Assembly (NCBI GenBank): GCA_964564355.1
Contig: CAZMDE010000004.1
Span: 1 to 27,715, forward strand
DNA: 27,715 bases
Direction of reading: 5' to 3'
Source: an uncultured Bacteroidales bacterium
GTDB lineage: Bacteria; Bacteroidota; Bacteroidia; Bacteroidales; JAGODS01
Each line of letters starts with the position of its first letter. Position 1 is the stretch's first letter. The notes under the pieces were generated by a model. That model worked only from the letters and a program-made list of their open reading frames with translations, ran no database searches and had not been told where the DNA came from. The position numbers were made by a program, and so were the translations under genes. Of this stretch, positions 279 to 3,656 are shown in pieces.

Positions 279-1052
279 ATGAGTTTTAAGGATAAAATAG
301 ATTTGAACAGATTGCCTCAGCATGTAGCAATAATAATGGATGGCAATGGAAGGTGGGCAAAACAAAGAGGTTTTGAAAGAATTTTGGGGCATGAGCATGC
401 TGTTTTACCAGTAAGGGAGACAACAGAAGCAGCAGCAGAGCTTGGAATAAAGTACCTGACTTTATATGCATTTTCTACAGAAAACTGGAAACGCCCGATT
501 GATGAGGTAAATGCTTTAATGAATTTATTAGTAAAAACTATAAATAAAGAGACTGAAACACTAAATAAAAATAACATACGTTTACTTGCAATTGGAAATT
601 TAAAAAGCCTGCCAGAAGATTCTTATTCAGAATTAATGGAAGCTATAAATGAAACTTCAAAAAATACAAGAATGTCTTTAGTTTTGGCATTAAGCTATGG
701 AGCTCGTTGGGAAATAGTAGATGCCGTAAAACAATTGATACTTGATAATTATACAGAATTGAGAATTGAGAATGGAGAATTGAGAATTAAAAATGAAGAA
801 ATAACAGAGGAGCTGTTTAGTCAATATCTTACAACAAAAGGGATTCCGGATCCGGAGCTAATGATAAGAACAAGCAGTGAATACAGAATAAGCAATTTTT
901 TATTGTGGCAATTAGCATATTCCGAATTATATTTTAGTTCAAAATTATGGCCTGATTTCACAAAAGAGGATTTCTATGAAGCATTATTGAATTATCAAAA
1001 TCGAGAGAGAAGGTTTGGTTTAACAAGTGAACAAATTAGTCCAAAGTCGTAA
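279..1052 (+). CDS. uppS: Isoprenyl transferase (undecaprenyl diphosphate synthase, cis-prenyltransferase)
   Basis: HVAIIMDGNGRWA, YAFSTENWKRP, RTS(S)EYRISNFLLWQ and C-terminal RRFG motifs; lies directly upstream of bamA, as is usual. Confidence 0.96.
   Translation: MSFKDKIDLNRLPQHVAIIMDGNGRWAKQRGFERILGHEHAVLPVRETTEAAAELGIKYLTLYAFSTENWKRPIDEVNALMNLLVKTINKETETLNKNNIRLLAIGNLKSLPEDSYSELMEAINETSKNTRMSLVLALSYGARWEIVDAVKQLILDNYTELRIENGELRIKNEEITEELFSQYLTTKGIPDPELMIRTSSEYRISNFLLWQLAYSELYFSSKLWPDFTKEDFYEALLNYQNRERRFGLTSEQISPKS
733..803 (+). repeat. In-frame heptamer tract inside uppS
   Basis: aattgat-acttgat-aattata (733-753), then agaattg-agaattg-agaatgg-agaattg-agaatta-aaaatga-agaaata (755-803); encodes QLILDNYTELRIENGELRIKNEEI. 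Confidence 0.9.
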
Positions 1053-1064
1053 GTAAACAGTTTT

Positions 1065-3656
1065 ATGAAAATTAAATATAAAAATTTACTAATTCTTTTT
1101 TTGCTTTCCATAGTATACTGTTTCCTGATTATATCGGGATTCACTGTTTTAAAAGCCCAGGTAATATTAGATGCAGAACAAATTAATATTGATTACAGTA
1201 ATCCAAGAACATATGAAATAGGGGGTATTACCATATCCGGAACGCAATACCTGGACAATAATATTCTTATAACCTTATCAGGATTAACGGTTGGAGACAA
1301 AATTGAGGTGCCGGGAGATAAGATAACAAAAGCCATTCAAAACTTATGGAAACAGGGATTGTTTGAGAATATAAAAATATCTGTTTCAAAAATTAACGGT
1401 GGGGTAATTTTTCTTAATATTTATTTAGAAGAAAAACCCCGTTTATCCAAATTCACATTTACAGGTTTAAGAAAGTCAGAAGCTAACAGCTTAAAGGATA
1501 AAACAAAACTTACGAAGGGGGATGTTGTAACTGAAAATCTTATAATGAGAACTTCAAATCTTATTAAAAATCATTTTACGGATAAAGGTTACATGAATAC
1601 TAATGTAAACATTATTCAGAAGCGTGACACATCGGTTACCAATAATGTTATTCTGATTATTAATGTAAATAAAGGGAAAAAAGGAAAGATTGGTAAAATC
1701 ACTTTTATTGGTAATAAAATACTATCAGAAGCAAAGCTTAAGAGGTTAATGAAAAAAACCAAGGAACATAAGTTTTTCAGAATATTTACAGCATCAAAAT
1801 TTATTGAATCAGAATACAAGGCAGATAAGCAAAAAATTATTGAAAAATATAATGAGATTGGTTTCAGGGATGCAAGAATAGTAAATGACTCGGTGTATAA
1901 AGAAAAGTTCGGAGTTCGGAGTTCGGAGTTCGGAGTTAGTAATAAAAATAAGGATGAACAACCGGGGAAATATATAAATATAGATATAAAGGTTGATGAG
2001 GGTAATAAATATTATTTCAGAAATATAACCTGGGTTGGAAACTCAAAATATACATCAGAAGAATTAAGCAGGGTATTGAAGATAAATAAAGGAGAGATTT
2101 ACAATCAGAAGAGATTAGATGCAAATTTATATATGAACTTAGAAGGTCAGGATGTAAGCTCTTTATATCTTGATGATGGCTATTTGTTTTTCAATGTAAC
2201 TCCAGTCGAAAAGCAAGTAGAAAATGATTCAATTGATATAGAATTCAGGATATATGAAGGCAAACAGGCAAGGATAAATAAAGTATATATTTCGGGAAAT
2301 ACAAAGACCAATGACCATGTAATTCTAAGAGAAATCAGAACAAGACCCGGTCAGTTATTTAACAGGTCAGATATCATAAGAAGCCAGAGAGAGCTAGCAC
2401 AACTAAAATATTTTAATGCAGAAAAAATCCAGATAAATCCAAAACCTAATCCACAGAATGGAACGGTAGACATAGAATATGTAGTAGAAGAAACATCATC
2501 AGACCAATTAGAACTATCAGGCGGCTGGGGAGGAGCAGCAACAGGACTTGTAGGAACATTAGGGGTTTCATTCAATAATTTTTCTCTAAGAAAAATTGCT
2601 AGAAGAGATGCCTGGCGACCGCTTCCTTCAGGAGATGGACAAAAATTAAGCCTGAGAGTACAAGCTAACGGGAGGCAATACCAATCATATAATGCATCAT
2701 TTACAGAACCCTGGCTAGGAGGGAAAAAACCTAATTCATTAAGTGTTTCTTTTTATAATTCAATACAAACAAATGGTTTAGCCAAGGGCGAAGCATCCAG
2801 ACAAGCTATAAATATTTACGGAGCATCAGTAGGCTTAGGAAAAAGGATTACCTGGCCTGATGATTTTTTCACACTTTACCAGGAAGTTGGTTATCAGAAT
2901 TACAAACTTGAAAATTACTTATCAACGTTTTTATTTGCTGATGGAACTTCGAATAATATATTTTATAATATTACCCTGGCAAGAAATTCTTTTGATGCGC
3001 CAATTTTTCCGAGAACAGGTTCATCAATTTCATTATCTTTAAAAGTCACACCTCCTTTTTCGTTGTTTACAGATAAAGACTATTCAGCATTATCTGCACA
3101 AGATAAATATAAATTGATAGAATATCATAAATGGAATTTTAATACTTCGTGGTTTACAAAATTAGCCGGCAATTTAGTGTTAAACACAAGGTTAAGATAT
3201 GGCTTTATGGGAGACTTTAATAGAGGAATCGGGATTTCACCATTTGAGAGATATTATGTAGGAGGTAGCGGGTTGTCCGGATTTTCACTAGATGGCAGAG
3301 AAATAATAGCAATGAGAGGTTATGCAGATTATTCATTAACACCCAGAAACAATTCCGGATATATAGGCGGTTCGATATTTAACAAATATACTATTGAATT
3401 AAGATACCCATTATCATTAAACCCGATGGCAACTATTTATTTATTAGGATTTGCAGAAGCAGGAAATGCGTGGACAAAATTTAAGGAATTTAATGCTTTT
3501 GATGTAAAAAGGTCAGCAGGTTTTGGAATCAGGGTTTTTTTACCAATGTTTGGATTACTCGGGCTTGATTGGGGTTATGGGTTTGATGAAATTCCCGGAA
3601 ATCCCGGAAATAACAAGGGACAGTTCCATTTTTCAATCGGGCAATCAATAGAATAA
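1065..3656 (+). CDS. bamA: Outer membrane protein assembly factor BamA
   Basis: Signal peptide, five POTRA-like segments, barrel start SSDQLELSGGWGG, MRGY loop motif, C-terminal FHFSIGQSI; uppS-bamA-skp order. Confidence 0.96.
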   Translation: MKIKYKNLLILFLLSIVYCFLIISGFTVLKAQVILDAEQINIDYSNPRTYEIGGITISGTQYLDNNILITLSGLTVGDKIEVPGDKITKAIQNLWKQGLFENIKISVSKINGGVIFLNIYLEEKPRLSKFTFTGLRKSEANSLKDKTKLTKGDVVTENLIMRTSNLIKNHFTDKGYMNTNVNIIQKRDTSVTNNVILIINVNKGKKGKIGKITFIGNKILSEAKLKRLMKKTKEHKFFRIFTASKFIESEYKADKQKIIEKYNEIGFRDARIVNDSVYKEKFGVRSSEFGVSNKNKDEQPGKYINIDIKVDEGNKYYFRNITWVGNSKYTSEELSRVLKINKGEIYNQKRLDANLYMNLEGQDVSSLYLDDGYLFFNVTPVEKQVENDSIDIEFRIYEGKQARINKVYISGNTKTNDHVILREIRTRPGQLFNRSDIIRSQRELAQLKYFNAEKIQINPKPNPQNGTVDIEYVVEETSSDQLELSGGWGGAATGLVGTLGVSFNNFSLRKIARRDAWRPLPSGDGQKLSLRVQANGRQYQSYNASFTEPWLGGKKPNSLSVSFYNSIQTNGLAKGEASRQAINIYGASVGLGKRITWPDDFFTLYQEVGYQNYKLENYLSTFLFADGTSNNIFYNITLARNSFDAPIFPRTGSSISLSLKVTPPFSLFTDKDYSALSAQDKYKLIEYHKWNFNTSWFTKLAGNLVLNTRLRYGFMGDFNRGIGISPFERYYVGGSGLSGFSLDGREIIAMRGYADYSLTPRNNSGYIGGSIFNKYTIELRYPLSLNPMATIYLLGFAEAGNAWTKFKEFNAFDVKRSAGFGIRVFLPMFGLLGLDWGYGFDEIPGNPGNNKGQFHFSIGQSIE
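1906..1937 (+). repeat. In-frame (AGTTCGG)4.5 tract inside bamA
   Basis: Four perfect AGTTCGG copies plus AGTT; encodes KFGVRSSEFGV. Confidence 0.95.

Follow-up and report, generated by a model that had tools for sequence, protein, structure and literature searches.

Heptanucleotides are the commonest long simple-sequence repeats (LSSRs) and are depleted in genes, at least according to the summaries of Mrazek, Guo and Shah (2007) that are given in PMC4679880 and PMC4692102, and a preference for four units has been reported for GGGAATC (PMC4692102). Another heptamer, TAACTGA, forms direct repeats across Beggiatoaceae, Cyanobacteria and Bacteroidetes (MacGregor 2015, PMC4679880). Most of these TAACTGA arrays are located immediately upstream of start codons, where they have been proposed to be regulator binding sites, and the stop codons that appear in one orientation restrict the placement of arrays in genes (PMC4679880). 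Here we describe a tract of the heptamer AGAATKG (K = T or G) that lies inside uppS, the gene for undecaprenyl-diphosphate synthase (UppS), in a stretch of 27,715 nt from an uncultured Bacteroidales bacterium (GCA_964564355.1, contig CAZMDE010000004.1, positions 1 to 27,715). This whole stretch is referred to as the window, and positions without a further label are window positions.

Two further kinds of element invite comparison with this tract. The Rickettsia palindromic elements, which Ogata et al. are said to have described in 2000, are reportedly dispersed sequences of 100-150 nt that lie in frame in surface loops of essential proteins and are read through as extra peptide. The second kind comprises intervening-sequence-like cassettes in which inverted repeats enclose a gene of the PF05635 family (23S_rRNA_IVP), a family that is related to the Avd protein of diversity-generating retroelements (PMC10053308).

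The uppS tract belongs to a known kind of repeat. As in the prokaryotic heptanucleotide LSSRs, including the short tandemly repeated repetitive (STRR) sequences of cyanobacteria, and as far as these are portrayed in the summaries mentioned above, units of 7 nt stand head to tail, period 7 is over-represented, non-coding DNA is enriched in arrays, and the length is about four units (median of 4.6 in the genome that carries this uppS gene). Unlike the LSSR and STRR heptamers, this genome has 137 unit families rather than one or few, its units are AT-rich and not G-rich, so that no G-quadruplexes are expected, and about one third of its tracts lie in frame inside genes, including the essential genes uppS and bamA. 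With the TAACTGA repeats the tract shares the occurrence of one heptamer as short tandem arrays in distant phyla, without an evident transfer mechanism, whereas its unit is AGAATKG and it is gene-internal and translated. As in the Rickettsia palindromic elements, such as they are reported to be, a member of a dispersed family lies in frame in a loop of an essential protein; unlike these elements, the tract measures 35 nt, is non-palindromic and has no inverted partner. Finally, the arms of the PF05635 cassettes are arrays of the tract's kind, in other organisms even of AGAATKG itself, but the uppS tract is a lone array with neither a gene nor a second arm, and a derivation from such a cassette would be hypothetical.

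We consider it probable that the uppS tract is one of the short heptanucleotide repeats of the LSSR/STRR kind that occur throughout the genome, and that, lying inside a gene, it extends a native coding segment, is translated, is most likely useless, and is free of stop codons by survivorship. A literature search for the AGAATTG repeat returned unrelated papers only.

The heptamer tract and the loop of UppS

The uppS product matches the Pfam family PF01255 over its full length (E=2.6e-84, 282.6 bits vs a curated cut-off of 27, residues 19-247 on profile positions 1-219), as a member of the UppS / cis-prenyltransferase family should, and it matches solved UPPS structures with E-values down to 1e-68. 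All 59 invariant columns of a family alignment of 56 sequences, including the query, are retained. The invariant regions include the DGNGRWA and RxSxE/RRFG motifs, and the conserved catalytic and substrate-binding residues are present (D21, G22, N23, G24, R25, W26, A27, R197, E201, R203, S205, R244, R245, F246 and G247). As judged from its sequence, the product is a canonical UppS. A profile search of the genome detected uppS as the single PF01255 gene in the assembly, and the uppS-bamA gene order is also found on the contig of the closest relative. Since uppS is essential, present in a single copy and intact, the tract must be translated. The first-pass annotation had regarded the tract as a real translated feature, and the intact, single-copy and canonical nature of the gene upholds this view, translation being deduced from the sequence.

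Counted from position 755, the units read AGAATTG, AGAATTG, AGAATGG, AGAATTG, AGAATTA, AAAATGA and AGAAATA. In the uppS frame the codons are ACA GAA TTG AGA ATT GAG AAT GGA GAA TTG AGA ATT AAA AAT GAA GAA ATA, which translate as TELRIENGELRIKNEEI. Units 1, 2 and 4 had been described as perfect, unit 3 as AGAATGG and unit 6 as AAAATGA, and direct reading agrees with this in every letter. Tandem Repeats Finder (TRF) confines period 7 to positions 755-788 (4.9 copies, 92% matches, score 61). The tract thus comprises at least three head-to-tail units of 7 nt, beyond what chance would provide, as is expected of a heptanucleotide repeat, and the longest perfect run amounts to 2 units. The last two units match the phased unit at 9 of 14 positions, with a background probability of about 0.03 for at least 8 of 14 matches among coding 14-mers of equal codon phase. 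Residues K171-I175, which these units encode in part, also fit the homologue columns (K/E-D/D-E-Q/I). Units 6 and 7 are therefore doubtful as repeat units, and their sequence suggests native flank more likely than decayed repeat.

Table 1. Location of the uppS tract, its parts and related features. Bare positions refer to the window.
Feature	Position	Strand	Remarks
uppS (undecaprenyl-diphosphate synthase)	279..1052	+	257 aa, intact open reading frame, start ATG at 279
Left part of the surplus, N157-R162 (NYTELR)	747..764	+	All-gap MAFFT columns in 120/120 homologues and in 29/29 relatives
Loop joining helix 142-159 to helix 177-181	753..803	+	Residues 159-175, AlphaFold2 model
Heptamer tract proper (AGAATTG, AGAATTG, AGAATGG, AGAATTG, AGAATTA)	755..789	+	Encodes (T)ELRIENGELRI(K); direct reading and TRF period 7
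First would-be TGA	774..776	+	Actual codon GGA (Gly166), T-to-G variant unit AGAATGG
Right part of the surplus, R169-I170	783..788	+	Absent from 119/120 homologues by alignment
Units 6-7 of the first-pass annotation (AAAATGA, AGAAATA)	790..803	+	K171(part)-N-E-E-I175
Second would-be TGA	795..797	+	Actual codon GAA (Glu173), 21 nt past the first, equal position of the 21-nt period
31-mer, copy 2	G000:C26:9534-9568	-	1699-codon frame with DUF7948 domain (contig 26), ELRIENGELRI
31-mer, copy 3	G000:C97:426-453	-	T9SS C-terminal sorting domain of a 2659-codon frame (contig 97), ELRIENGELRI
Fourth gene with the AGAATKG family, sense	G000:C219:1901-1942	-	Unassigned 1694-codon frame (contig 219), encodes ELRMENGELRVEN
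PF05635 genes bracketed by inverted arrays	G000 C107:4642-4959, C254:3138-3449, C229:4083-4391, C12:12351-12647		Loci L362, L364, L365, L367; a different unit family each
PF05635 gene with AGAATKG arrays, other organism	L248:2645-3214		
PF05635 gene with AGAATKG arrays, other organism	L241:150-773		
PF05635 gene with AGAATKG arrays, other organism	L190:830-1618		

The segment around the tract had been thought to be about 7 amino acids longer than in a typical UppS. Its length was compared with 29 orthologues recovered from 40 related genomes, and with the best 120 homologues from a collection of 5.8 billion proteins. Between the equivalents of D156 and I175, all 29 orthologues are exactly 8 residues shorter than the uppS product, and the segment measures 32 residues in 117 of the 120 homologues vs 40 in the uppS product. 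The earlier estimate was thus right to within one residue. The nearest homologue (P0001, 77% identity) has a segment of 34 residues, that is +2 only, and none of the best 120 homologues has the 8-residue surplus in full.

By alignment, the surplus falls into the two parts that are listed in Table 1, although this split is to be read with the ambiguity of gap placement within a repeat in mind. Between the two parts, I163-L168 (IENGEL) fits the homologue consensus V/I-K/E-N-G-K/E-L, with G being the commonest residue at Gly166 (65/120), N occurring in 35/120 and L in 58/120 of the homologues; the Glu173 column contains E in 43/120 and D in 29/120. The codons for this hexapeptide, ATT GAG AAT GGA GAA TTG, equal 2.6 units of AGAATKG in an AT-rich codon usage. 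On this comparison, GGA for Gly166 and GAA for Glu173 look like native codons rather than mutated repeat units. Orthologues of the same length and with similar residues had been named in the first-pass annotation as an outcome that would speak against its reading. Similar residues were indeed found in the orthologues, yet their length is not equal.

An AlphaFold2 model (m10fb5c492835) that was built on 56 homologues, with a mean predicted local distance difference test (pLDDT) of 85.8 and a predicted template modelling score (pTM) of 0.84, places a helix at residues 142-159, a coil at 160-171 and a helix at 177-181. Block 161-170 has a mean pLDDT of 53, which is the lowest of the protein. The location in a surface helix-loop region that had been anticipated is thus reproduced by the model, where the surplus forms a low-confidence coil between the two helices, and the gaps in HMMER alignments with the solved UPPS structures 1f75, 7jli and 3wyi fall at the identical spot. 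To judge by sequence and model, the tract is a real, translated and lineage-specific loop extension of a normal UppS. For uppS itself this is of little consequence, as the enzyme appears to be a normal UppS with a tolerated extension of 8 residues, and annotation pipelines should not take the tract for a signal of a frameshift or a pseudogene.

The tract is probably a neutral passenger. It seems highly improbable to us that the extra loop is adaptive or selected in this lineage, for example as a new contact surface, or that the tract serves as a phase-variable switch. The persistence of the tract in an essential gene and the beta-hairpin-like pattern of the peptide (L-x-I-x-N-G-x-L-x-I) could be taken to favour such a role. 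However, the peptide is also found in unrelated proteins, model confidence is lowest in the loop, the insertion is shared by none of the 29 orthologues and 120 best homologues, and a slip of 7 nt in a tract with no more than 2 perfect units in a row would frameshift an essential single-copy gene. For the latter reasons, a phase-variable contingency locus, in which a long perfect tract would switch the gene on and off, was rejected.

Stop codons in the frame of the repeat

A heptamer that is read in one frame runs through all three phases every 21 nt. Therefore, an in-gene tract of at least 3 units needs a unit that is cyclically free of stop codons on the coding strand, or else every in-phase stop has to be broken. 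The first-pass annotation had pointed out that a perfect (AGAATTG)n repeat would give stop codons in the uppS frame, and direct reading confirms that TGA would fall at both of the sites listed in Table 1. It had also stated that the mismatches of the tract lie exactly on these would-be stops. This holds true in so far as both of the would-be TGA codons are broken. However, the mismatches at 789 and 791 lie outside of them and, since the two would-be stops are 21 nt apart, they represent one position of one 21-nt unit and not independent events.

A test of stop avoidance across the genome had been suggested as well, and its outcome has two sides. The consensus unit is stop-free on the coding strand in 164 of the 185 tracts that lie in frame inside genes (89%), vs 96 of 185 (52%) on the antisense strand; the corresponding share is 40% among intergenic tracts and 53% among random heptamers. 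Among the tracts with one stop-free strand only, the coding strand is free in 78 vs 10 (p=3e-14). The uppS tract is one of the 21 in-frame tracts with a stop-containing unit. The 20 stop-containing tracts without indels have 20 would-be in-frame stops and 46 mismatches, 23 of which lie within the 60 stop-codon positions out of a total of 633 (unconditional p=3e-12). However, once one required mismatch per stop is granted, the excess shrinks to 3/26 vs 1.7 expected (p=0.24), which means that mismatches at stops are no more frequent than openness of the frame demands. As this excess is not significant once the open frame is granted, stop avoidance is explained by survivorship. It is real, yet it reflects what survives: selection sorted existing arrangements, and new mutations need not be assumed.

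The unit family itself leads to the same view of position 774. All AGAATKG tracts in the genome were catalogued and scored unit by unit. Intergenic units have T in 25 and G in 19 cases (G 43%), and antisense units in genes have T in 24 and G in 4. For sense units the counts are T 2 and G 11 at the stop phase, vs T 15 and G 14 at other phases (G 48%). Both T units at the stop phase are terminal and are followed by a base other than A, so that no stop is formed. The frequency of the G variant away from stops is thus about that of intergenic tracts (Fisher p=0.81), and the variant is enriched at the stop phase only (p=0.04 and p=0.01). G at position 774 represents an ordinary T/G variant of the AGAATKG family.

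The view that selection for an open frame had shaped the tract is therefore correct in one respect, in that the tract clearly could not have persisted without an open frame. The accompanying picture of a once-perfect repeat that gained mismatches at its stops finds no support, given the ordinary variant, the native-looking codons and the p-value of 0.24. Rather, we propose that only versions with a G-variant unit or a native Gly or Glu codon at the stop phase would persist in an essential gene, by a survivorship filter acting on pre-existing variants and not by a series of compensating point mutations. Apparent 'compensatory mismatches' can thus be an illusion that arises from survivorship, native codons and ordinary family variants. 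The tract represents a clean, quantified case of the survival of non-triplet repeats in essential genes, where stop-free, in-frame and loop-located arrangements alone persist.

The genomic population of tracts and the arrival of extra units

The assembly comprises 3.24 Mb in 612 contigs (33.5% GC, 91% complete), and the named relatives in the protein search are Bacteroidales metagenome-assembled genomes (MAGs). At period 7, 188 perfect tracts have 3 or more copies, whereas periods 5 and 6 have 9 and 8 such tracts, respectively, and at a TRF score of at least 50 we found 258 period-7 tracts vs 1 period-6 and 98 period-8 tracts. Lowering the score to at least 40 gives 514 period-7 tracts, which make up the 137 unit families, as compared to 0 in a Markov-1 random genome and 0 in a triplet-shuffled genome of equal size. 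Frames of at least 150 codons account for 84% of the genome; of the 514 tracts, 185 (36%) are found 90 nt or more inside such a frame and 184 outside any. Period 7 is thus in excess over neighbouring periods genome-wide and biased towards non-coding DNA, as is typical of the LSSR/STRR kind. Period-7 tracts are scarcer in the relatives that were sampled, with 16 per 100 kb in this genome, 6 per 93 kb in a genome of the same family and 4 per 108 kb in another relative. On the contig of the closest UppS homologue, 4 tracts were counted in 7.8 kb; both flanks of its uppS carry tracts, but uppS itself does not.

The median tract length is 4.6 copies and the mode is 31-32 nt (about 4.5 units), alike in genes, at gene edges and between genes. 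Since the mode is identical inside and outside genes, it is the generating process and not reading-frame selection that determines this preferred length. A quantisation of in-gene tracts in steps of 21 nt was rejected on the basis of the same identical mode and of net changes of +8, +19 and +1-2 aa.

Arrays of this type also occur close to uppS. At 217-271 of the window, an octamer array (AATTTGGT type) and then a heptamer array end a few bases upstream of the uppS start codon. On the contig of the closest relative, heptamer arrays flank uppS on both sides (L032:4439-4471 and L032:5291-5332).

The 31-mer at 757-787 (AATTGAGAATTGAGAATGGAGAATTGAGAAT) is present in exactly three copies in the genome, all of them sense, in long frames and encoding ELRIENGELRI. 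Besides uppS, these frames contain a DUF7948 domain and a sorting domain of the type IX secretion system (T9SS), and a fourth gene carries the AGAATKG family in sense orientation (Table 1). For the DUF7948 protein, seven orthologues have native residues that align with the peptide, and the net gain is 1-2 residues only, the native pattern at this site being hydrophobic-x-hydrophobic-x-x-G-x-L-x-I/V-K-T-S. The match of the T9SS sorting domain extends over 68 residues for 66 profile positions, or about +2. BamA contains a perfect (AGTTCGG)4.6 tract at window 1906-1937, with a net gain of 19 aa vs 28 relatives; this insertion exceeds what the (AGTTCGG)4.6 tract itself encodes. Each AGAATKG site in a gene was already similar to the peptide of the tract, with an N-G turn between alternating hydrophobic residues. 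Such native resemblance to the tract peptide would favour microhomology-guided copying and tolerance alike. The uppS gene, the DUF7948 gene and the T9SS gene thus share a dispersed family in frame in unrelated proteins, with the uppS copy in a modelled loop, much as reported for the Rickettsia palindromic elements; hairpin-forming inverted arms of the kind known from the latter were not detected, there being no mirrored array within 1 kb of the uppS tract.

These findings can be combined into the following scenario. A native Ile-Glu-Asn-Gly-Glu-Leu segment that already reads as 2.6 units would have served as a seed, and the tract, of a family with a typical length of about 4.5 units, would sit on this seed and extend it. 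UppS, which is canonical in other respects, has a net gain of 8 aa (24 nt) in the loop that joins two surface helices. Two candidate routes may account for the arrival of the extra units: the native seed may have undergone local slippage, or a patch may have been copied from another tract under the guidance of microhomology. Alternatively, the tract could be a purely local product, either of a 21-nt (7-aa) tandem duplication of ELRIENG to ELRIKNE or of three-unit slippage on the native IENGEL seed, followed by point changes. We regard this alternative as rather less than even in probability, though deserving of serious attention. It is favoured by TRF, where period 21 over 755-800 (2.2 copies, 88% matches) has a slightly better score (71) than period 7 (61), by the agreement of 756-776 and 777-797 at 18 of 21 positions, by the 2.6 units that the native-looking hexapeptide already spells, and by the fact that the frame is kept by 21-nt steps only. 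On the other hand, the surplus amounts to 24 nt instead of 21 and is split by alignment into 18 + 6 nt, the identical 31-mer is found in two unrelated genes and many phyla, and other in-gene tracts brought net gains of +1-2 and +19 aa. Indeed, the net changes of +8, +1-2, about +2 and +19 aa, which are not multiples of 7 aa, fit better with patch-like replacement or repeated events than with simple three-unit slippage.

Several points weigh against the in-gene extension of a native seed that we favour. The searched collections contained no conspecific and no relative of more than 80% identity, the best protein homologue being 77% identical, and both the order of events and the ancestral sequence were reconstructed from the alignment alone, with ambiguous gap placement in the repeat. 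The tail at 790-803 is slightly more unit-like than chance (p about 0.03), and may represent a decayed unit. Lastly, the exact 31-mer is present in three genes in equal phase, an outcome estimated to be about 1% likely if the copies had arisen independently; the shared 31-mer hints at copying between loci over purely local slippage. A search of metagenome contigs for the uppS flanks with a variable gap gave no match.

AGAATKG in other organisms and arrays around PF05635 genes

At least 119 contigs from GTDB species representatives of many phyla carry the exact 31-mer. The taxa among the matches listed include Patescibacteria, Bacteroidales, Faecousia (with many copies), Ruminococcus and the isolate Vibrio scophthalmi, as well as Cloacimonadota, Acidobacteriota, Ignavibacteria, Caldilineaceae and a cyanobacterium. 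Of metagenome contigs, at least 120 carry the 31-mer too. A tract length of exactly 4.4 units was seen in 121 of 255 cases, and the 31-mer often forms a discrete tract of this length in unrelated flanks. Some of these flanks are GC-rich, and the AT-rich tract then stands out as clearly foreign. If K is allowed at each of the four variable positions, the 31-mer pattern occurs in 55 IMG/VR contigs.

The genome contains six PF05635 genes. Four of these are enclosed by inverted arrays, which consist of tandem units of 7-8 nt and are 381-440 nt apart. A mirrored pair of arrays lies next to the fifth gene, and an array is found upstream of the sixth. The array families at these genes are the commonest of the genome, with AACAATT ranking 1 of 137 at period 7, and AAATTACC and AATCTGAT ranking 1-2 of 49 at period 8. 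Three metagenome contigs of other organisms contain PF05635 genes (Pfam E-values of 1e-25 to 1e-26) with AGAATKG arrays at their flanks. A PF05635 gene between inverted arrays of one family is thus seen at four loci of the genome and, with AGAATKG arms, in L241 and L248, where the layout is array(+), gene(+), array(-). Within 1 kb of the uppS tract there is no mirrored partner array, nor is there a PF05635 gene nearby. Most tracts are in fact solitary, as only 7 mirrored neighbour pairs were found among 856 tracts.

In the light of these arrangements, the uppS tract might be a solo end or fragment of a dispersed and possibly mobile element, the complete form of which would have inverted heptamer or octamer arrays on either side of an Avd-like PF05635 gene. 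It would then have been copied into uppS by template switching or recombination at microhomology, with only in-frame and stop-free outcomes surviving. We consider such an origin unlikely, though far from negligible. Several observations are in its favour: the bracketed genes and the mirrored pair at the fifth, the abundance of the bracketing families in the genome, the AGAATKG arms in the three contigs of other organisms, and the occurrence of the 31-mer in many phyla, in part with GC-rich flanks. In addition, native residues of the DUF7948 and T9SS proteins gave way to the tract without an addition of 7 aa, and the +19 aa of BamA is not a multiple of 7 aa. Arguing against this origin, no PF05635 gene with AGAATKG flanks was found in the assembly (91% complete, 612 contigs), the uppS tract is solitary, as are most others, and the TTGT order of T and G variants in its units is no commoner than per-unit frequencies predict. 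Moreover, PF05635 proteins are not known to have transposase-like activity, and the mechanism of transfer would be hypothetical.

A link between the uppS tract and the PF05635 cassettes can thus be put forward tentatively at best. On a wider and equally doubtful proposal, the heptamer and octamer arrays of the genome, including the uppS tract, may be (orphaned) arms of widespread and apparently undescribed small cassettes, in each of which inverted tandem arrays would enclose an Avd-like PF05635 gene. Such arrays would move about within genomes and also cross between phyla, AGAATKG being found from Patescibacteria to Vibrio, and would be written into essential genes where microhomology exists and the peptide is tolerated. 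We prefer to regard the uppS tract as an in-gene member of the LSSR/STRR-like population. Irrespective of its derivation, the recurrence of AGAATKG across phyla and the array-bracketed PF05635 genes bear on the long-open origin of bacterial heptamer repeats.

Two further candidates concerning this recurrence were rejected or found unsupported. A privileged TTG-TTG-TGG-TTG cassette was rejected, as among the other tracts at the loci examined (tTTT 21, tTGT 10, tGTT 6 and tTTG 6) this order is about as frequent as the unit frequencies predict. A cross-phylum repertoire of other unit families was unsupported since, the AGAATGG variant aside, the loci of other organisms have few families in common with this genome. 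In one Faecousia MAG, the 31-mer lies within a larger repeated element that is present on at least 14 contigs.

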